Notes: generated by a model not told the origin, from the sequence alone. Numbered from the stretch's first letter, positions 23,347 through 61,000 are shown. The stretch: DNA of 64,000 nucleotides from Planctomycetota bacterium (GCA_036274635.1 DASUFI010000217.1:266-64265), one strand, 5' to 3'. A program made the numbers and translations.

Positions 23347-23423
23347 CGCGTTGCGATGGCGAGGGTGAAGGGACTCGAACCCTCGACTTCCAGCGTGACA
23401 GGCTGGCGCTCTAACCAACTGAG
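23347..23423 (-). tRNA. tRNA-Asp (anticodon GTC)
   Basis: The reverse complement folds as a canonical cloverleaf: acceptor GGGGGTG/CACCCTC, D-arm GCTC-AGTTGGTTA-GAGC, anticodon arm CCAGC-CTGTCAC-GCTGG (GTC), T-arm GAGGG-TTCGAGT-CCCTT, discriminator G, encoded CCA. It has the same length and layout as E. coli tRNA-Asp. Confidence 0.85.
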
Positions 23424-23532
23424 CTACACCCCCGCGAACGTCCGATCGCTCGTCCGTTTCAGGAGCGCGGAATCCTAGCGAGGGCGCCGGGCGGGCGGCA
23501 AGTCCCCGGCCTGATCCCGTGCGGGCCGGCGG

Positions 23533-27228: not shown

Positions 27229-27539
27229 GCGACGACTCCCTTGCGCCAGCGGCGCGCGACGTAGGCGGTGACGAGCCACGGTTGCTGCCTTGCGGTCGCG
27301 TCGAGCACGACCACGACCACGACGAACTTGCCTTGCAGGAGGTGAGGATACCAGCGCGCCAGCAGCATGGTGTTGCTGCCGGTCTCGTCCCAGCAGATCT
27401 CGTCGGGATCCGCCAGGACTTGCGCGATGACAGCTGGCCAGCGAGCGGCCAGCTCGCCGTGCCCGGCGAGGACGTGGCGCTCGCGCTCTGTCGACACGCG
27501 GACCGGCTTCTTGAGGAATGGGCACGCCAGCAGGATCAT
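27213..27539 (-). CDS. DUF4258 family small protein (toxin-like)
   Basis: The start ATG is at 27539 (MILLACPFLKKPVRVSTERERHVLAGHGEL...VVVVVLDATARQQPWLVTAYVARR). It fits the DUF4258 pattern, which commonly pairs with DUF2283. Confidence 0.5.
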   Translation of the reverse strand: MILLACPFLKKPVRVSTERERHVLAGHGELAARWPAVIAQVLADPDEICWDETGSNTMLLARWYPHLLQGKFVVVVVVLDATARQQPWLVTAYVARRWRKGVVAWRRS

Positions 27540-27602
27540 GTCCGCCGGTCGGAGCCGAGGCGTCGGCGTTACGCACTGCGGCCCCTTTCCCGGAGCACCC
27601 CG

Positions 27603-29837
<2,235 letters not shown>

Positions 29838-45595: not shown

Positions 45596-47557
45596 ATGGA
45601 CCGCCCGGTGCTGCTCTTCGACGGGCATTGCCGCTTCTGCCTCGGGCAGGCGGAGCGCCTGCAGCGCTGGGCCGGCGGCCGCATGGAGCTGCTGTCCTTC
45701 CGCGAGCCGGGCGCGCTCGAGCGCTTCCCGCAAGTGGACGCGGCGGCCTGCGAGCGCGCCATGCAGCTCGTCCTGCCGGACGGACGCGTGCGGCCCGGCA
45801 TCGACGCGGTGCTCGAGGCGCTGGCCCTGCGGCCCGCGCTCGCGCCGCTGGCCGCGCTCGGCCGGCTGCCCGGAGTGCACGCGCTGCTCGCGGCCGGCTA
45901 CCGCGTGGTGGCCGACAACCGCTTCGCGCTCGGCGGGCGCACCGAGGCCTGCGCCGAGGGCACCTGCGCCACGCACCTCGCGCCGCCCGAGCCGCGCGGC
46001 CTGCTGAGCGCGCCGCGTGCGCTGGTGCGCGACGTGTGGTTGCGGCTGCTGGGCGCGGTGCTGCTCATCGCCTTCCTCTCGCTCGATCGCCAGCTCGTGC
46101 CGCTGTACGGGCAGCACGGCCTGCTGCCGGCGCGCGAGTACATCGGCCAGGTGCACGAGGCCCTCGACTCCGGCCGCGTCGCCACGTGGCAGGTGCCCAC
46201 GGTCTTCCTGTGGGTCGCGCCCAGCGACGCGGCGCTGCTGTGGGTGGAGCGCGCCGGCGCCGCCTGCGGCCTCGCGCTGCTGCTGGGCCTGTGGCCGCGG
46301 CTCGCGCTGCTGGGCGCGTGGCTGCTGTATCTCTCGCTGGTGACGATCGGTCAGGTCTTCCTCGGCTTCCAGTGGGACAACCTCCTCCTGGAGGCCACCT
46401 TCCTCTCGCTCTTCGTCGCGCCCGCCGGCCTGCGCCCGCGCGGCGCGCCGGCGCCTCGCGCGGCGGGCGTGCTGCTCATGCTGGGGCTGCTGCTGCGGCT
46501 CACGCTGGAGTCGGGCTGGTCCAAGTGGCTGGGCGGCGACCCGCACTGGCGCGACCTGTCCGCCGTGTCCAGCTACTACGAGACCGCGCCGCTGCCCACC
46601 TGGGTCGGCTGGTGGGCGCACCAGCTGCCGGCCTGGTTCCAGTCGGCGAGCACGGCCATCACGCTGGTCGTCGAGGGCCTCGTGCCGCTGCTGCTCATCA
46701 CCACGCGCCGGCTGAGGCTGGTGGCCACGTGCGTGCTCGTGGGCTTCCAGCTGCTCGTCGCGGCCACGGGCAACTACGGCGTCTTCAACCTGCTCAGCAT
46801 CGCGGTGTACCTGTGGGCGCTGGACGACGGGCACCTGCGCGCGCTGGCCGCGCGCCTGCGGCGGACGATCGCGCCGCGCGCGCTGCCGGCCCCCACGCGC
46901 CTCCTGACTGCGGCGGCGCGTCTCGCGGGCGCGCTGCTGCTGACCCTGCTGGCCGCGGCCCCCTTCCGCATGTACTGGGAGGAGGAGACGACCTGGGGGC
47001 CGCCCACGGCGCTCGAGAAGGTCGAGTCCTGGGTGGCGCCTTTCCGCACGCTCAACCTCTACCACCTGTTCGTGAGCCTCACGCTGGTGCGGCGCGAGAT
47101 CGAGATCGAGGGCAGCCAGGACGGCGCGACGTGGAGACCGTACGTCTTCGCGCACAAGCCGGGCGATCCCGCGCGCGCGCCGGACTTCGTGGCGCCCTAC
47201 CAGCCGCGGCTCGACTTCCAGTTCTGGTTCCTGTGCCTCGACGGCGCGCCGCGCGCGCCCTGGTTCCAGCGGCTGCTGGTGCAGCTCGTGACCGAGCCGG
47301 CCCTCATGGCGCGGCTCTTCGAGAGCACGCCCAACGGCGAGCAGGCGCCGGCCTACGTGCGCTACTCGGTGTGGCAGTACACCTTCAGCTCGCGCGAGGA
47401 GCGCGCGCGGACGGGCGACTGGTGGACGCGCGACCTGCTGGGCATGTCCTCGGCCATGCCGGCCGAGGAGCTGGCGTGGAAGACGGGCGACCCGCCGCCT
47501 CAGCGCAGCTCGTCGAGCCAGGACGCGAACGCCGAGAAGCCGTCGGCGCCGAGGTAG
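45596..47557 (+). CDS. Fusion of DCC-family thiol-disulfide oxidoreductase (DUF393) with lipase maturation factor (LMF) domain
   Basis: The N-terminus LLFDGHCRFCLGQAERL is the DCC CxxC motif. A polytopic LMF-like domain follows (HGLLPAREYIGQV..., WDNLLLEATFLSLF, YYETAPLPTW). Confidence 0.75.
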   Translation: MDRPVLLFDGHCRFCLGQAERLQRWAGGRMELLSFREPGALERFPQVDAAACERAMQLVLPDGRVRPGIDAVLEALALRPALAPLAALGRLPGVHALLAAGYRVVADNRFALGGRTEACAEGTCATHLAPPEPRGLLSAPRALVRDVWLRLLGAVLLIAFLSLDRQLVPLYGQHGLLPAREYIGQVHEALDSGRVATWQVPTVFLWVAPSDAALLWVERAGAACGLALLLGLWPRLALLGAWLLYLSLVTIGQVFLGFQWDNLLLEATFLSLFVAPAGLRPRGAPAPRAAGVLLMLGLLLRLTLESGWSKWLGGDPHWRDLSAVSSYYETAPLPTWVGWWAHQLPAWFQSASTAITLVVEGLVPLLLITTRRLRLVATCVLVGFQLLVAATGNYGVFNLLSIAVYLWALDDGHLRALAARLRRTIAPRALPAPTRLLTAAARLAGALLLTLLAAAPFRMYWEEETTWGPPTALEKVESWVAPFRTLNLYHLFVSLTLVRREIEIEGSQDGATWRPYVFAHKPGDPARAPDFVAPYQPRLDFQFWFLCLDGAPRAPWFQRLLVQLVTEPALMARLFESTPNGEQAPAYVRYSVWQYTFSSREERARTGDWWTRDLLGMSSAMPAEELAWKTGDPPPQRSSSSQDANAEKPSAPR

Positions 47558-48426
47558 CGCACGCCGCGCGGGCCGCGCCGCACGCCGAGCGCCTCGCGCC
47601 CGCCCACCAGCAACCGCGTGCGCGCCGGGAGCTGGCGGCGCAGCCGGGCCAGCACGCCGTCCGTGGCCGGCCCCGCCGTGCAGGCCGAGACGCCGATGGC
47701 GACGCCCGCCGCGCCGCTCTCGCGCGCCGTGGCGACGATGTCGGCCGGCGGCGCCGAGGCCCCCAGCAGCAGCGGCCGGCGCCCGCGCGACGCGACCACC
47801 AGCGCCGCCATCTGCAGCCCCAGCGCGTGCGCCTCCCCCTCCAGCGTGGCCAGCACCACCACCGGCGCGCCGTCGGGCACGGCCAGCTCGAGGCGCAGCG
47901 CGCGCAGCAGGTCGTCGACGGCACCGGACAGGAAGTGCTCGTGGTGCACGCCCGCCGCCCCGCCGGCCCACGCCTGGCCGACGCCGCGGAAGAGCGGCGC
48001 GACGCGCTGCTCCACGAAGGCCAGCGGCCCGAGGCGCGCGTAGCTGTCGCGCAGCGCGGCCTGGATCTCCGCGGCGCGCCACTGGCGCGCCAGCTCGAGC
48101 AGGTGCCGCGGCAGCGGGCCCTCGGCCGGTGCCGGCGACTCGTCCAGCAGGCACTGCAGCGCCTCGGCATCGGAGGCCATGAGCGCCGCCAGGCGGTGGC
48201 CGCGAGCGAGGCCGTCGACGATGCGCCGCACGAGGCACACCTGCTCGGGGCCGTAGCGGCGGTGGCCCGAGCGCAGGCGGGCGGGCGCGGGCCGGCCGTA
48301 GCGGCGCTCCCAGGCGCGCAGCGTGGGCACCGCGACGCCGGTGGCCGCGGCCAGCTCGCCGATGGACAGCAGCCGGTCGTGCGGCGGCTCGGCCCCGGGC
48401 TGCGGAGTCTGCAGGCGGCGAGGCAT
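47500..48426 (-). CDS. MerR-family regulator with C-terminal cobalamin-binding domain (CarH/CarA-like)
   Basis: The N-terminal MerR HTH is LSIGELAAATGVAVPTLRAWERRYG. The C-terminal B12-binding Rossmann-like region (VVLATLEGEAHALGLQMAALVV) includes the His-containing segment E/DxH. Confidence 0.75.
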   Translation of the reverse strand: MPRRLQTPQPGAEPPHDRLLSIGELAAATGVAVPTLRAWERRYGRPAPARLRSGHRRYGPEQVCLVRRIVDGLARGHRLAALMASDAEALQCLLDESPAPAEGPLPRHLLELARQWRAAEIQAALRDSYARLGPLAFVEQRVAPLFRGVGQAWAGGAAGVHHEHFLSGAVDDLLRALRLELAVPDGAPVVVLATLEGEAHALGLQMAALVVASRGRRPLLLGASAPPADIVATARESGAAGVAIGVSACTAGPATDGVLARLRRQLPARTRLLVGGREALGVRRGPRGVRYLGADGFSAFASWLDELR

Positions 48427-48495: not shown

Positions 48496-49230
48496 CTAGA
48501 CCCTGGTCGCCGGGCCGCCGTCCTCGGAGGCCTCTTCCTCCGCCTCGTCCTCGGCGTCGGGCACGGTCGGACGGGCCTCGTCCTGCGGCAGGGCCCCGGT
48601 GACGAAGGTGCCCACCACGTTCGCGCCCGCATCCGCGAGGCTCGCCAGGGAGCGCTCGGCATCCTTGCGGCGCGTCTCCTCGATGGCCACGATGAGCAGG
48701 ACGCCGTCCGCGAGGCGCCCCAGCTCGCAGGCGTCCGAGAAGGCCAGCACCGGCGGGCTGTCGATGAGCACGTACTCGAACTGCCGCTTCAGCACGGCGA
48801 TGAGCTCCTGCATGTAGGCGCTCGTGAACACCTCGCCGGGGTTGTCGACGGCGCGTCCGGCAGGCAGCAGGGTGAGGTTGGTCAGGGGGGTCTGCTGCAG
48901 CGCCTTGCGCGGGGGCAAGCCGTCCAGCAGCACGTCCCCGAGGCCCGGGGTCCCCAGGCAGCCCAGCAGCCTGTGCAGCTGGCCCGCGCGCAGGTCGGCG
49001 TCCACGAGGCAGACGCGCGCCGAGGCGCTCTCGGCCAGCGCGCAGGCGATGTTGACCACCGTGACCGACTTGCCTTCGCGCGGCTGCGCGGACGTGAACA
49101 GCAGCGTGCGCGGCTCGCCCTGAGGGTTCATGGCGCGCAGGTTGGTGCGGAAGCCCCGGTACTGCTCGGCCTGCTGCCCGGCCGGATCGTGGTAGACGAC
49201 CACCCGCGGATCGACCACGTCGTCGACCAT
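48496..49230 (-). CDS. P-loop ATPase of the CpsD/CapB (BY-kinase catalytic domain)/MinD-ParA superfamily, lacking a C-terminal Tyr cluster
   Basis: The start ATG is at 49230 (MVDDVVDPRVVVYHDPAGQQAEQYRGFRTNL). It has Walker A SAQPREGKS, Walker A' VCLVDADLR and Walker B YVLIDSPP. The acidic C-terminus contains no Tyr residues. Confidence 0.75.
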   Translation of the reverse strand: MVDDVVDPRVVVYHDPAGQQAEQYRGFRTNLRAMNPQGEPRTLLFTSAQPREGKSVTVVNIACALAESASARVCLVDADLRAGQLHRLLGCLGTPGLGDVLLDGLPPRKALQQTPLTNLTLLPAGRAVDNPGEVFTSAYMQELIAVLKRQFEYVLIDSPPVLAFSDACELGRLADGVLLIVAIEETRRKDAERSLASLADAGANVVGTFVTGALPQDEARPTVPDAEDEAEEEASEDGGPATRV

Positions 49231-49382
49231 GGCGACGATGGTGCCGGGCGGCGGGCTGGGGGCGGGCTGGCGTCGGGATCGAAAGGGCCACATGGGCGCT
49301 GGCTTCATCGGCCAGGAGGATGAGGTGGGCTGAAGCGGCATCCATGACGCCGCGGAAGGAGCCTTTTTATCGCCCCGTTGAC

Positions 49383-49410
49383 CGCGATCGTGGGGTATCT
49401 CACGATCGCG
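49383..49410. promoter_or_regulatory. Palindromic operator candidate in divergent promoter region
   Basis: CGCGATCGTG-gggtatct-CACGATCGCG has perfect 10-bp arms. It lies between the divergent 49230 (-) and 49475 (+) starts and is flanked by TTGACC and TTGACG -35-like hexamers. Confidence 0.3.
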
Positions 49411-49474
49411 CGCAAGGTTTGACGGTTTTCAGCCGATGGGAACGGGTCCGCTCTGGACGTTCCCTGGGACCCCC

Positions 49475-50269
49475 ATGAGCTTCAAGCTCGCTCGCAACGT
49501 CTTCGAGGTCCTGCGCGGCTCGGCCCGCACCAAGTCGCTGGACCAGCTGCGCCGCGAAGGCCACCAGCACGTGCCCGTGCTGCGCTTCTCCGACCTCGAG
49601 GCGCTCATGGCCGCGGCCGTCGATGACACGCTCACGCGCCTCGGGCTCGACCTCGCCGACCACCAGGTTTCGGGCCTGAATGACGAGGCCCGGCTGCGCT
49701 TCCTGGCCCTGCTGCGCGAGCGTCAGCAGCTCAAGGACACGCTGGCCAACCTGCAGCGCGAAGGCGCCAAGCTGGAAGGCACGACGGAAGGCGTGCGCGC
49801 CGAGATCGAGCGCGCGCAGGCCGAGCTGGTGGAAGAGGAGGAGCACGCGCCCGCCGAGGGCACGGACGTCGAGCTGGACGCCCTGCGCGCCAAGCTGCGC
49901 GAGACGATCACCGCCATGCTGGCGGGGGTCGGCGACGCCGAGCTGCCCAACCGCATGATGGAGGCGGTGGACTCGGCCGTCGAGAACTACCGCATCCTGG
50001 TGGCGGCCCGCTCGCGACGCGAGCAGGAGGCGCGCGTCGAACAGCTGCAACGGCGGTTGCATAGGCTCCGCCACAAGCTGGAGGAGTCCGAGATCCTGCT
50101 GGCCAAGGCCCGGGCAGCCGCCAGCGCTCAGGGGGGTATCATCCCCAACTTCGACCCTGGGGCCGCGCTGCAACCCGGCGATACCGACTACCAGCAGAAG
50201 AAGGCCCTCCTCGACGAGGTCTTCAAGCTCAACGTCGAGCTGCGCAAGATGATTGCCGCAAAGGAATGA
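49475..50269 (+). CDS. Coiled-coil protein (Glu/Arg/Leu-rich)
   Basis: The ATG is at 49475 (MSFKLARNVFEVL). It has heptad-like E/R/L periodicity through residues ~70-240 and sits directly upstream of the actin-like gene. Confidence 0.6.
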   Translation: MSFKLARNVFEVLRGSARTKSLDQLRREGHQHVPVLRFSDLEALMAAAVDDTLTRLGLDLADHQVSGLNDEARLRFLALLRERQQLKDTLANLQREGAKLEGTTEGVRAEIERAQAELVEEEEHAPAEGTDVELDALRAKLRETITAMLAGVGDAELPNRMMEAVDSAVENYRILVAARSRREQEARVEQLQRRLHRLRHKLEESEILLAKARAAASAQGGIIPNFDPGAALQPGDTDYQQKKALLDEVFKLNVELRKMIAAKE

Positions 50270-50315
50270 CCCCCCAACCTGCCGATAAGAGGCACCCCCG
50301 TGCCTGGAGCTGAAC

Positions 50316-51446
50316 ATGACGAGCGCGACCATGAAGAAGGATGACGGTGCGAACATGAAGGACGGTGCGAACATGAAGAAGGACGACACCCGCAAGACCG
50401 ACGCGTCCGCCGACGCCGGTGACGAGGGCATCCTGTGGATCGGGATGGACCTCGGCACCTCGCGCACGGCCGTGGCGTCGAGCAACGGCGTGCGCGAGAA
50501 CAGCTACTCGCTGGTCGGCTGGCCGCGTGACGTGGTGTCGCGCAAGCTGCTGGGCGAAGGACCGCTGTTCGGCCCGGACGTGATCAAGCACCGCCTCTCG
50601 CTGAACGTCTTCCGCCCGCTCGAGGCCGGCGTGATCAAGGGCAGCGACGACGGCAAGGACGCCGAGGCCAACCTCAAGGCAGCGCAGGCCCTCGTGCGCT
50701 ACGCGATCAGCCTGGCGCGCGCCGAGAAGGACCAGCTCATCTACGCCGTCATCGGCGCGCCCGCGCAGTGCAGCATCAAGAACCGCAAGGCCATCGTCGA
50801 CGCCGTCAAGGACGAGGTCGACTCGGTCATGCTCGCCTCCGAGCCCTTCACGGTGGCCTACGGCCTCGAGAAGCTGACCGACACGCTGGTCATCGACATC
50901 GGCGCGGGCACCACGGACCTGTGCCGCATGCACGGCACGATGCCGGCCGAGGAGGACCAGATCACCAACAGCTTCGCGGGCGACTTCATCGACCGCAACT
51001 TCATCAAGCTCGTGAAGAAGAACCACCCCGAGCTGGCCTTCTCCGATCGCATGGCCACCGAGGCCAAGGAGAAGTACGCCGACGTGTCGAACAACGGCGC
51101 CAAGGCCATCGTGAAGTGGCCGGTGAACGGCAAGCCCACCGAGGTGGACCTCACCAGCGAGATGCGCGAGGCCTGCCTCTCGATCGTGCCCCCCATGGTC
51201 GAGTCGCTGCACAAGCTCATCGCCGACTTCGACCCGGAGTTCCAGGCCGTGCTGCGCGACAACGTCCTGCTGGGCGGCGGCGGCAGCCAGATCAAGGGCC
51301 TGGGCGACGCGCTGCAGGACTACATGGAGAAGCACCTGGGCGGTGGCAAGGTCATGACGGTCGAGGAGCCGGTCTACGCCGGCGCCAACGGCGCCCTCAA
51401 GATCGCGCGCGACATGCCCAAGGAATACTGGGAGCAGTTGACCTGA
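50316..51446 (+). CDS. Actin-like ATPase, MamK-like
   Basis: GGAG lies 8 nt upstream of the ATG. Actin-fold motifs are phosphate-1 ILWIGMDLGTSRTAVASS, phosphate-2 LVIDIGAGTTDLC and the adenosine motif NVLLGGGGSQIKGL. It also shows block-wise similarity to MamK as I recall it (LVGWPRDVVSRKLLG, AVIGAPAQ, ASEPFTVAYGLEKL, terminal PKEYWEQL). Confidence 0.8.
   Translation: MTSATMKKDDGANMKDGANMKKDDTRKTDASADAGDEGILWIGMDLGTSRTAVASSNGVRENSYSLVGWPRDVVSRKLLGEGPLFGPDVIKHRLSLNVFRPLEAGVIKGSDDGKDAEANLKAAQALVRYAISLARAEKDQLIYAVIGAPAQCSIKNRKAIVDAVKDEVDSVMLASEPFTVAYGLEKLTDTLVIDIGAGTTDLCRMHGTMPAEEDQITNSFAGDFIDRNFIKLVKKNHPELAFSDRMATEAKEKYADVSNNGAKAIVKWPVNGKPTEVDLTSEMREACLSIVPPMVESLHKLIADFDPEFQAVLRDNVLLGGGGSQIKGLGDALQDYMEKHLGGGKVMTVEEPVYAGANGALKIARDMPKEYWEQLT
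50343..50378 (+). repeat. Perfect in-frame 18-bp tandem duplication (GACGGTGCGAACATGAAG x2) inside the N-terminal low-complexity region of the MamK-like gene
   Basis: It was read directly. It encodes DGANMK twice and creates additional in-frame ATG codons. Confidence 0.85.
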
Positions 51447-51457
51447 GCGGAGCCCGC

Positions 51458-51979
51458 GTGCTCACCCCCCGCCTCGGGGCGGCCCTGCTGCTGGCCGCCC
51501 TGGGCGGCTGCAGCGGCCCCACCGAGGTGGACCGGGGCGTGTACCTGCCGCTGGTGCGGGACACCATGGACTGCCAGGCCCAGGGTCCCACTCCCGGGCT
51601 GACCGAGCGCCTGCGCGGGCTGCAGCGCATCACGCTGGCGGGCATGCGCAACGTCGAGCTGCCCGTGGACGCGGCGGGAACCGCCACCCCGGTGGGCCGG
51701 GGCGACTGGGACGTGACCCACCGCAGCTCCGAGGACAACTCGTGGTGGCTGGCCGACCGCCGCCTGCTGACGCAGGACGACGAGGGGCACTGGGTCATCG
51801 CCAACGAGGGCGTGCTCATCGGGGCGGACGACGCGCGTGCGGTGCTGCTGGACGACAATGGCCTGTTCCTGACCGCGCGTGACCCCGCCCGCGTCGGCCA
51901 GAGCGTGCTGGTCATCGCCGCGGACAACCGCCTCGTGGTCGTCGACTTGCGGGCCTGGACGTGCTTCCAGGTGCACTGA
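51458..51979 (+). CDS. Lipoprotein, hypothetical
   Basis: The GTG start at 51458 is 11 nt after the actin-like stop, with GGAG upstream. The lipobox is LLAALGGC. Confidence 0.55.
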   Translation: MLTPRLGAALLLAALGGCSGPTEVDRGVYLPLVRDTMDCQAQGPTPGLTERLRGLQRITLAGMRNVELPVDAAGTATPVGRGDWDVTHRSSEDNSWWLADRRLLTQDDEGHWVIANEGVLIGADDARAVLLDDNGLFLTARDPARVGQSVLVIAADNRLVVVDLRAWTCFQVH

Positions 51980-52058
51980 GCCCCGTCCGGCGACCGGGGG
52001 GCCCGCGGCACGCCCCCGCTGACAGACGCCCTGCCGGGACATAAGATCGCCGGTGGCC

Positions 52059-52199
52059 ATGCGGACCTACCTGCAGTTCCTCCGGCGGCATCCGGTGTGG
52101 TGGGTCACCCCCATCGTCCTCTACCTGGGGGCGCTGCTCTGGCTGGCGTCGCTGGTGGCGCGGACGCCGGACAATCCCTTCGCCTACACGCTGTACTGA
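52059..52199 (+). CDS. Small membrane protein (46 aa), DUF5989-like
   Basis: It is not in the ORF track. MRTYLQFLRRHPVWWVTPIVLYLGALLWLASLVARTPDNPFAYTLY matches the FLRxxKWWLxP...PFIYTLF pattern of small membrane peptides found in surface-polysaccharide/carbamoyltransferase-type loci. Confidence 0.5.
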   Translation: MRTYLQFLRRHPVWWVTPIVLYLGALLWLASLVARTPDNPFAYTLY

Positions 52200-59745: not shown

Positions 59746-60360
59746 TCAGTAGTTCTCCTGCTTGGTGACGTCGACGCGCGTCTGGTGCATGAGCTGCAGC
59801 GTCGCGACGTCGGTCACGCGCAGGAAGATGTGGTACTGCACGCGGCGCACGTCGTCGCTCTTCTCCGTCGTGTCCCACACGCGCCCGGCCACGAAGTACT
59901 GGATGCCGAACTCCTTGCCCAGCGCCGCGGCCGTCTCCTTGTCCACGGCGTCGCCCGCGTCGCGCAAGCGCTCGGCCAGCACGGCGTCGCGCATGATGGT
60001 CGTGTTGTCGACCACGTGGAACAGGTTCGACTGCACCAGCTGCGTCTCGGCCGCGGTCAGCAGCGTGTCCAGCGCCCCCGAGATGTGCTCGGAGGTGGCG
60101 TTCTCGAAGCTGAGGATGGCGATGCCGGGCTTGCCGGGCGGCAGGCCCTTGACGAACTCGCTGCGCGCCAGCTGGTTGACCCACTCGGCCAGCGCGAGGT
60201 CGATGTCCTTGCTGTCGAGGCGCGTGGAGAGGGCCGGGCTGTCGATCTCCGGCTCCTCGGCCGCGCGCGAGTACTCCGGCCCGGAGCAGGCGGGCAGCAG
60301 GGCCACGGCCAGGAGCAGGGCGAGCGCGACGCGCGACGGACGGCCGGTCTCAGCGCACAT
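59746..60360 (-). CDS. LpoB-like lipoprotein (penicillin-binding-protein activator LpoB fold, PF13036-like)
   Basis: The lipobox is LLAVALLPAC. The pattern IAILSFENATSE...LFHVVDNTT...GIQYFVAGRVWDTT...VQYHIFLRVTDVATLQL resembles the LpoB C-terminal domain. Its start overlaps the upstream gene by 11 nt. Confidence 0.5.
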   Translation of the reverse strand: MCAETGRPSRVALALLLAVALLPACSGPEYSRAAEEPEIDSPALSTRLDSKDIDLALAEWVNQLARSEFVKGLPPGKPGIAILSFENATSEHISGALDTLLTAAETQLVQSNLFHVVDNTTIMRDAVLAERLRDAGDAVDKETAAALGKEFGIQYFVAGRVWDTTEKSDDVRRVQYHIFLRVTDVATLQLMHQTRVDVTKQENY

Positions 60361-61000
60361 CCACCACCTCCTCGTTGGGCCGCCCCTTGATGCGCTGCAG
60401 GCAGGCCTCGGCCGCGCGCGCGGCCTCCTTGATCTCGTCGTCGCCGCCGCCCAGATAGAGCCGGCCGTAGGCGCCGAAGCTCACCACCTCGAGCAGCCGG
60501 ATGGGCGCGGCCTTCTCGGCCTCGTTGGCGCACAAGAGCGCGTAGCCGGCCGGGTGCGTCTCCATGATGTACAGCGACTGGCCCTTGAGGATGCAGTCGC
60601 CGTGCCGCATGCGGTTGATGAGCATGGTCTGGTAGGCGTCGGTGCCGGTGATGATCTCCGACGTGACCACGCGCGGCGTGAGACGATCCTCCTCGGTGAG
60701 GCCGTGGTGGCGCAGGATGGCCTCGCCCGCCGCGCGCACGTCGCCCTGGTTGAAGGAGTGCAGCTCGAGGCAGCCGAAGGCGCGCTCGACGATCTGCATG
60801 CCCGGCGTCACGGAGGCGTTCTTGAGGGCCACGTCGGTGATGCGGTTGATGGCGATGCCCGGCTGCACCTCGACCATGAGCGCGGCCTGCTCCTCGATGG
60901 GCAGGTAGCCCTGAGCCACCGTGGCCAGGAAGCTCGCGAGCTGCGGCTGCAGCACGTCGAGGAAGGTGTACGTGCGCAGCGTGACGGCGGGGCTGGCCAT
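60350..61000 (-). CDS. Tandem BMC-domain protein (BMC-T-like bacterial microcompartment shell protein), orphan
   Basis: It has two ~100-aa repeats, each matching the BMC pattern: ALMVEVQPGIAINRITDVALKNASV ... GDVRAAGEAI and GYALLCANEAEKAAPIRLLEV ... YLGGGDDEIKEAARAAEA. No other microcompartment genes are in the window. Confidence 0.5.
   Translation of the reverse strand: MASPAVTLRTYTFLDVLQPQLASFLATVAQGYLPIEEQAALMVEVQPGIAINRITDVALKNASVTPGMQIVERAFGCLELHSFNQGDVRAAGEAILRHHGLTEEDRLTPRVVTSEIITGTDAYQTMLINRMRHGDCILKGQSLYIMETHPAGYALLCANEAEKAAPIRLLEVVSFGAYGRLYLGGGDDEIKEAARAAEACLQRIKGRPNEEVVDVR

Follow-up and report, generated by a model that had tools for sequence, protein, structure and literature searches.

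What does an actin of the magnetosome type do in a bacterium that carries no magnetosome genes around it? This question is raised by a locus at positions 48,496–51,979 of a 64,000-nucleotide (nt) stretch of DNA from a Planctomycetota bacterium (GCA_036274635.1 DASUFI010000217.1:266-64265), here called the window. An initial annotation, made from the DNA alone, had proposed that four genes at this locus form an undescribed cytoskeletal cassette, consisting of an actin similar to MamK, a coiled-coil partner, a lipoprotein and a divergently transcribed ATPase. All four are present as open reading frames (ORFs) with a composition of the coding type, with a GC content of 0.88–0.97 at third codon positions (GC3) and of 0.40–0.50 at second positions (GC2), in a window whose overall GC content is 69–78%. 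We think it reasonably probable that the locus represents a chromosomal, vertically inherited cytoskeletal system of planctomycetes, the core of which is an operon of the coiled-coil gene and a MamK-type actin gene, with the coiled-coil protein as dedicated partner of the actin. This reading draws on family assignments, gene order, conservation and co-occurrence, and on filaments that others have reported for a related protein.

The first step towards an answer is the identity of the actin. The protein aligned with the NCBIfam model of MamK (NF040964) over the full length (actin residues 40–375, model positions 1–330 of 335), with 397.6 bits and an E-value of 3.9e-119, which is 2.4 bits short of the cut-off of 400. 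Its scores with other actin models were 182 bits for BeeR (NF053558, cut-off 530), 74.6 and 60.5 bits for MreB (NF010539, cut-off 293, and TIGR00904, cut-off 365.75), and 17.8 bits for ParM (E 0.0015, cut-off 417). Among solved structures in the PDB, the best match was MamK of M. magneticum (5JYG/5LJV, 246 bits, E 4.5e-72), followed by BeeR (8R2N, 106 bits) and by MreB with at most 59 bits, while ParM and FtsA were not among the PDB matches at E <= 0.001. Profile and PDB scores thus favour MamK over a placement in MreB, FtsA or PilM. Residues E176 and D194 of the window protein align with E143 and D161 of MamK, which we take to be the residues mutated to block ATP hydrolysis, and both are invariant in 33 relatives. 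Several relatives with 56–61% identity carry the NCBI label 'MamK family actin-like protein'. Because of these scores and the aligned ATPase residues, the initial annotation was correct in stating that the protein reads like MamK, and as judged from its sequence the product is a MamK-family actin.

The start of the actin gene is preceded by GGAG, 6 nt before the ATG. The first ~37 residues of the protein form a variable, low-complexity extension, and the 5' end of the gene (50316–50387, plus strand) contains an 18-nt tandem repeat of 3.2 copies encoding repeated K(K)DDGANM units. A relative with 94% identity (P0001) is 5 amino acids (aa) shorter than the window actin.

The second step concerns the gene upstream of the actin. 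We compared the window, whose genes were called by third-position GC, with 82 non-redundant related loci, using six-frame ORFs and iterated profiles seeded from the window proteins; two further loci (L085 and L086) were examined besides these. In all 82 loci, and in L085 and L086 as well, the gene that immediately precedes the actin gene on its strand was the coiled-coil gene. In the 82 loci a median of 101 nt separates the coiled-coil stop codon from the point where the actin match begins. The pairing holds even for a distant member of the coiled-coil family that is 785 aa long. An independent all-against-all BLAST clustering recovered the family in 80 of the 82 loci, and apart from the coiled-coil protein (with the actin) and the ATPase it found no family in more than eight loci. 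The initial annotation was right about the coiled-coil protein: found upstream of the actin in all 82 related loci, it is a genuine partner, and a conserved one.

This partner belongs to an unannotated family, which comprises 398 clusters at 50% identity among 1.84 billion representatives. The window protein had no match in Pfam or NCBIfam, and a PDB profile search gave nothing below an E-value of 0.027. Its AlphaFold2 model is all-helical, with long helices at residues 70–123 and 157–219 (mean predicted local distance difference test score, pLDDT, 70; predicted template modelling score, pTM, 0.37), and Foldseek searches of the PDB with this model returned generic coiled coils only (Smc arms, Vipp1, BAR domains), none of them at E <= 0.001. 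The mechanical ORF spans 49436–50269, but all 18 full-length homologues begin at the second ATG, at 49475, with MSFKLAR or MTFRLAR (MSFKLAR in the window). We therefore adopt this start, and the resulting 264 aa match the 265 aa given earlier. Its long helices are accompanied by a conserved peptide and a small domain at the N-terminus and by a motif, QRRLHRLRHKLEESE...KKALLDEVFKLNVELRKMI, that is conserved in the C-terminal part. In the family this motif, approximately LERRIxKL...(K/R)KxL(L/M)xxIFxxNLxL, is the best-conserved part and aligns across all loci, and the complete N-terminus reads M..LA..(V/L)(F/Y)..(L/M)R, followed by the small domain.

The family also varies in its size and number of copies. 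A scan of ten longer members (461–785 aa) for a fused cargo domain gave no Pfam domain. Three of the long members (P0199, P0221, P0188) have a common ...(E/D)(T/V)AF tail after the conserved motif, and two members (P0205, P0243) have in common a beta-rich N-terminal region and repeated PDDMPW(E/Q)P segments, again with no Pfam match. Some loci (L054, L061, L071) contain a second gene of the coiled-coil family downstream of the actin gene. Several metagenome-assembled genomes (MAGs), CAZQHA01, JAJDEV01, JBFMCU01, JBBQNP01 and JBBQCC01 among them, contain two separate coiled-coil/actin pairs, all of the type without the ATPase, which suggests paralogous filament systems in one cell. Tyrosine 239 in the C-terminal motif was considered as a kinase target and rejected; it is kept only in the nearest relatives and is F, A or another residue elsewhere.

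How widespread is the pair, and in which organisms? The actin matched at least 499 stretches among species-representative genomes. The best 80 of these all came from Planctomycetota or from MAGs without classification, Brocadiaceae and a Kuenenia MAG being among them, and there were no myxobacteria among these 80. An exact look-up of the window actin in the assembly collection gave no record, and the host is placed by way of homologues. It is a planctomycete, and the initial annotation was mistaken in looking to the Myxococcota for context. A protein search with the actin gave thousands of matches; the top 120 each scored at least 446 bits, and the named ones were almost all Planctomycetota. 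One of these 120 was labelled Pseudohongiellaceae, which may be a binning error. The nearest relative among the genomic loci of the scan was 75% identical to the window actin, and the actin of L086 was 80% identical. As judged from its flanks, the locus is chromosomal and inherited vertically, because these flanks match those in a 5.3-Mb genome whose actin is just 63% identical. The shared genes are isoamylase/GlgB and an SLC13 transporter on the upstream side, and genes for a 441-aa protein and for LpoB-like, BMC-domain and CycH-Ig proteins on the downstream side.

The third step is the ATPase. In 68 loci enough upstream sequence was available to judge its presence, and in 25 of these the ATPase gene was adjacent to the coiled-coil/actin pair. 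It was divergent, as in the window, in 12 loci and co-directional in the other 13, where the order on the one strand is ATPase, coiled-coil, actin. The ATPase scored 115.6 with the model TIGR01007 of bacterial tyrosine kinases (BY-kinases), above the cut-off of 108.05, versus 48.9 with MinD (TIGR01968, cut-off 212.9) and 17.9 with ParA (NF041546, cut-off 180). The PDB searches gave the same ranking: the BY-kinases BceF, CapB, Wzc, Etk and VpsO scored 102.7, 97, 92, 83 and 73 bits, respectively, and the positioning ATPases MinD, McdA and ParA 34, 30 and 23 bits. The motifs of the protein comprise a Walker A (AQPREGKS), A' (LVDADLR) and B (VLIDSPP) and an ExxRxxR (EQYRGFR), the last being the oligomerisation motif of BY-kinases; these motif types are kept in all 26 aligned members. 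In its longer form, TSAQPREGKS, the Walker A follows the xxxxGKS pattern of BY-kinases and not the deviant KGGxxGK[ST]. Since its orthologues begin at a conserved M-x-WPF peptide, the likely start of the ATPase is the third methionine, with its codon beginning at 49293 on the minus strand. The window ATPase has no C-terminal tyrosine after the last conserved block in the alignment of 26 members. ATPases of the window's clade end in ...PDLEEV or similar, and those of other clades have one or two tyrosines there.

The initial annotation had described a divergent ATPase similar to both ParA and BY-kinases. The divergent orientation, the BY-kinase fold and the lack of a tyrosine cluster stand, and the gene recurs across loci; the ParA/MinD side of the description does not, and neither does the label of a positioning ATPase that was built on it. 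We classify the protein, from its sequence, as a BY-kinase catalytic domain and not as ParA or MinD. With the ATPase, the conserved co-occurrence of neighbouring genes that the annotation had anticipated extends to two genes, the coiled-coil gene in all related loci and the ATPase gene in part of them, but not to the lipoprotein gene discussed below. Presence of the ATPase is associated with the state of the coiled-coil protein: its N-terminus was complete in all 25 ATPase-linked loci versus 2 of the 43 loci without ATPase (Fisher p ~1e-16, a value inflated by shared ancestry).

Alternatively, the ATPase might be an ordinary tyrosine kinase of the CpsD/CapB type that works for the GDSL and DUF5989 (glycan-modification) genes nearby, and its proximity to the actin would be coincidental. 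The ATPase passes the TIGR01007 cut-off, its orthologues are named 'CpsD/CapB family tyrosine-protein kinase [Planctomycetota]' by NCBI, and GDSL and DUF5989 genes do follow the actin gene in the window, as they do in L086, which is the closest relative whose downstream flank could be read. However, they do so in these two only. The GDSL genes are not downstream of the actin in L004, L002, L003 or the P0013 contig, and the link to polysaccharide-type genes in the initial annotation is therefore lineage-specific. The ATPase, in contrast, stays beside the pair in 25 loci whose neighbours are otherwise unrelated, and in 13 of these it is upstream on the same strand. In the window its neighbours are the coiled-coil/actin operon and, on the opposite flank, a MerR/B12-binding regulator, with no transmembrane modulator (CapA/CpsC/Wzz-type) or polysaccharide export genes beside it, and across the related loci there is no recurring family of Wzz- or CapA-type modulators, Wza or polymerases. 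Also, the ATPases of the window's clade lack the tyrosine cluster, and the orthologues score 192 bits or more where ordinary BY-kinases reach no more than 143 bits, which leaves a sharp gap. This explanation is therefore unlikely.

The divergent intergenic region, which is ~181 bp long with the revised starts of the ATPase and coiled-coil genes, does contain the 10-bp-arm palindrome that the initial annotation had noticed, CGCGATCGTG-N8-CACGATCGCG. It is the sole exact match in the window, with a chance expectation of 0.03 matches (up to 3 mismatches allowed). A promoter-like TTGACC-N17-CACGAT overlaps the palindrome; a consensus promoter scan found no promoter in the coiled-coil/ATPase intergenic region. 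The closest genomic relative, L004, shares the promoter-like element, the right arm with its flank (CACGATCGC[G/A]CGCAAG[G/C]TTTGA) and the TTGACC 17 nt upstream, and lacks the left arm. A hexamer similar to GGGTTGAC recurs, when read by eye, in the intergenic regions of the clade. Symmetry was not kept in the 11 other divergent loci examined, which rules out the palindrome as a conserved operator or centromere.

This palindrome invites a second alternative, type II (ParMRC-like) DNA segregation, in which the actin would push DNA apart, the coiled-coil protein would be the DNA-binding adaptor and the palindrome the centromere. An actin with a small partner and a nearby palindrome indeed resembles ParM/ParR/parC and Alp7A/Alp7R, and the palindrome is statistically unusual. 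Yet the ParM match of the actin is negligible next to its MamK match (E-values of 0.0015 and 3.9e-119, respectively), and the coiled-coil partner has no ribbon-helix-helix, helix-turn-helix or other DNA-binding match in Pfam, NCBIfam or the PDB profile search. Moreover, the palindrome is a single one, without a repeat array and without conservation in 11 related intergenic regions, the locus lies in conserved chromosomal synteny and not on a plasmid or prophage, and some genomes contain two coiled-coil/actin pairs. We consider DNA segregation even less likely than a role in polysaccharide control. Least credible of all is a remnant or accessory of a magnetosome cluster, with a true MamK left after cluster loss or serving a cluster elsewhere in the genome: the actin comes close to the NCBIfam MamK cut-off, MamK is its closest solved structure, and some Planctomycetota MAGs are reported to contain magnetosome clusters, but no magnetosome-type family was found among ~37 scanned proteins of the window, in agreement with the initial annotation, nor did one recur in the 82 related loci, the planctomycete actins form a tight group with 54–75% identity to the window protein and 36–42% to MamK of M. 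magneticum AMB-1, and the family is too widespread, and its own two-gene context too constant, for a remnant.

How might the planctomycete system work? Most likely, the actin would polymerise with ATP into dynamic filaments. The coiled-coil protein would probably use its amphipathic C-terminal motif, which is conserved, to bind the actin, and would probably be an adaptor, tether or regulator of the filament. In the older branches of the family, including that of the window, the ATPase may be a third component, accessory and probably ancestral. Its target would be the coiled-coil protein, at the complete N-terminal peptide and domain, and as an ATP-driven switch or kinase it would set where or when filaments are anchored. 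We infer these contacts and roles because of the conservation of the parts concerned and by analogy with MamJ/MamK, the Mad proteins and MamK, ParB/ParA and CapA/CapB. The cargo would be something other than a magnetosome; a part in cell-shape change, in budding or division, or in the positioning of an internal structure would be most plausible in these FtsZ-less bacteria.

Several points weigh against this interpretation. Two thirds of the loci do without the ATPase, which is therefore accessory. The association between the ATPase and the coiled-coil N-terminus is confounded by ancestry, as in a simple neighbour-joining tree the ATPase-linked loci branch first and the loci without ATPase form one derived clade. 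In addition, the hidden Markov model of the coiled-coil family was seeded with an ATPase-linked member, which may bias the result for the N-terminus. Finally, the filaments were seen with the protein of Saltatorellus, a putative orthologue of the window actin.

A bolder proposal, which we put forward tentatively and regard as rather doubtful, is that the BY-kinase-fold ATPase was recruited from polysaccharide control to the actin cytoskeleton. Acting through the N-terminal peptide and domain of the coiled-coil protein, it would use ATP-dependent oligomerisation or tyrosine phosphorylation to switch the anchoring or dynamics of MamK-type filaments. In that case, the pair of coiled-coil protein and actin would constitute a cytomotive system found throughout the FtsZ-less Planctomycetota, which serves shape-shifting, budding or division, or the positioning of an internal compartment, and it would be a non-magnetic relative of the magnetosome MamK system, or its ancestor.

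FtsZ is missing from most Planctomycetota, whose division, budding and change of shape are not understood. A MamK-type actin in hundreds of species-level genomes, together with a universal partner and a recurrent ATPase, offers concrete candidates for this question, with three genes and two short conserved peptides as handles. It also shows how common MamK-family actins are outside magnetosomes, which bears on the origin of the magnetosome cytoskeleton, and a link to a cytoskeletal operon would be an uncommon application of the BY-kinase fold.

The remaining genes of the cassette have a more local character (Table 1). The initial annotation had described the lipoprotein as translationally coupled to the actin and as the membrane anchor of the system. 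Neither claim held. The likely GTG start, at 51458, lies 11 nt after the actin stop codon (51444–51446), so that the two genes are closely spaced without overlap. The lipoprotein gene is a real gene, because its GC3 is 0.96, and it is probably co-transcribed with the actin gene. Its product had no Pfam or NCBIfam match, and tblastn and phmmer searches found no homologue in 83 loci. Nor is there such a gene in L086, where a GDSL gene directly follows the actin gene. These results rule out the lipoprotein as a conserved part of the module. A promoter-like site at 52019–52047, found by the consensus scan, precedes the DUF5989 ORF and suggests that the GDSL genes are a separate transcription unit.

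Table 1. Positions of the genes and other elements of the locus and its surroundings, counted from the first nucleotide of the window
Feature	Position	Strand	Remarks
BY-kinase-fold P-loop ATPase (predicted)	48496..49341	-	ORF 281 aa; likely start 49293, giving 265 aa (MWPF...)
Perfect 10-bp-arm palindrome	49383..49410		Within divergent intergenic region
Coiled-coil partner, unannotated family	49475..50269	+	264 aa; start from homologues, helices from AlphaFold2
Actin-like ATPase, MamK-family (saltatorellin-type)	50316..51446	+	376 aa; NCBIfam and PDB matches
Lineage-specific lipoprotein	51458..51979	+	173 aa; signal peptide, lipobox LGGC
DUF5989-type small membrane ORF	52059-52199	+	46 aa; likewise in L086
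Three tandem paralogues of ~522 aa	52222-56940	+	GDSL/SGNH hydrolase domain and helical-repeat C-terminal half; same arrangement in L086
tRNA	23360-23433	-	Single Rfam hit
B12-binding radical SAM protein	27282-29837	+	851 aa
DCC1-like/LMF1 fusion protein	45596-47557	+	653 aa
MerR/B12-binding regulator	47500-48426	-	CarH/LitR photoregulator type
LpoB-like lipoprotein and BMC-domain protein	59746-61000	-	Overlapping genes; BMC-domain protein 216 aa

On the other side of the locus, the MerR/B12 regulator, a MerR-type helix-turn-helix fused to B12-binding domains, is encoded 69 nt downstream of the ATPase gene, a position that it has just in the window's own clade (L001/L004 and both P0013 contigs). 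With such a neighbour, the module might be under light regulation in this clade. As a conjecture, the palindrome might be a lineage-specific operator, perhaps for this regulator. Another motif, (A/G)GCCGAT, is found ~40–60 nt upstream of the coiled-coil start in the window's clade (L003, L004, L006, L007, L008). The copy in the window, at ~49428–49436, includes the upstream ATG that the mechanical ORF call took as the start.

Farther away, the sole hit of an Rfam scan of the whole window was a tRNA at a long distance from the locus, with no hit in the locus region itself. The gene for the B12-binding radical SAM protein adjoins a histidine kinase/LuxR response-regulator pair. The DCC1-like thiol-disulfide oxidoreductase domain is fused to LMF1 and LMF1_C (lipase maturation factor), and the gene lies between the SLC13 transporter and the MerR/B12 genes; it is not at the corresponding position in L003. 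The LpoB-like lipoprotein gene overlaps a gene for a protein with a weak BMC domain (microcompartment shell, CsoS1D-like), and this pair is kept in the distant relative L003 (14239–15538), with no further microcompartment genes in view.

Among known systems, MamK of magnetotactic bacteria belongs to the same actin subfamily as the window protein, which keeps the ATPase residues. MamK systems also resemble the window in that a non-enzymatic helical or acidic partner (MamJ, MamY, McaA/McaB, coiled-coil Mad proteins) is encoded beside the actin; in Magnetospirillum, mamJ is directly upstream of mamK. To our knowledge, no magnetoskeleton includes an ATPase with a BY-kinase fold. The coiled-coil Mad proteins belong to deep-branching magnetotactic bacteria, and in Desulfovibrio magneticus they work with MamK (PMC12748827). 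Unlike the magnetosome systems, the window lacks a magnetosome gene cluster, its partner protein has no Pfam or NCBIfam model, and its actin is distant from MamK of AMB-1. The next-closest named actin family is BeeR, a tubular bacterial actin, with which the score is far below the family's own cut-off and well below the MamK score.

The ATPase shares its fold, the Walker A, A' and B motifs and ExxRxxR with the BY-kinases CapB/CpsD, Wzc, Etk and BceF. In contrast to these, however, it is a stand-alone soluble protein without an adjacent transmembrane modulator or a tyrosine cluster, its family has the M-x-WPF N-terminal peptide, and it is consistently found beside a cytoskeletal pair instead of polysaccharide export genes. 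With ParA/MinD-type systems (MinDE, ParAB, McdAB) it has in common that a P-loop ATPase of the same superfamily is combined with a small helical partner, and here the conserved N-terminal peptide of the coiled-coil partner co-occurs with the ATPase. This is a functional analogy only, as the ATPase scores just 23–34 bits with MinD, McdA and ParA and its Walker A is not deviant.

An actin of this type has been described before. A 2019 preprint on the 'Saltatorellota' (Wiegand et al., bioRxiv 10.1101/817700) presented high-GC (67–70.5%), shape-shifting relatives of planctomycetes that have MreB and a second actin 'most similar to MamK'. This second actin of Saltatorellus ferox and its relatives was named saltatorellin, and its fusion to mCherry assembled into filaments in two hosts, E. 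coli and a mamK mutant of M. gryphiswaldense. Planctobacterial MamK is alluded to in a 2020 review, and a 2024 paper repeats the name saltatorellin and adds nothing more. Like the window actin, saltatorellin is a MamK-like actin of high-GC, planctomycete-related bacteria without magnetosomes. Its reverse primer encodes ...YWEQLK followed by a stop, close to the ...YWEQLT and stop of the window protein. The primer-encoded N-terminus, MTDITTD, differs from that of the window actin, which therefore comes from another organism than the published saltatorellin.

Hence, the initial annotation went too far in calling the combination not a described system as regards the actin, whose kind is already known, by name as saltatorellin and by a curated family model as MamK. 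Its statement appears to hold for the neighbours. The preprint makes no mention of neighbour genes of saltatorellin, and in the MamK literature on Planctomycetes, Planctomycetota and anammox bacteria we found no paper on partner genes of the MamK-like actin. Since the preprint names no neighbours, the coiled-coil protein and the ATPase are additions to the saltatorellin account: an obligatory coiled-coil partner and a recurrent BY-kinase-fold ATPase, both of which appear to be new.

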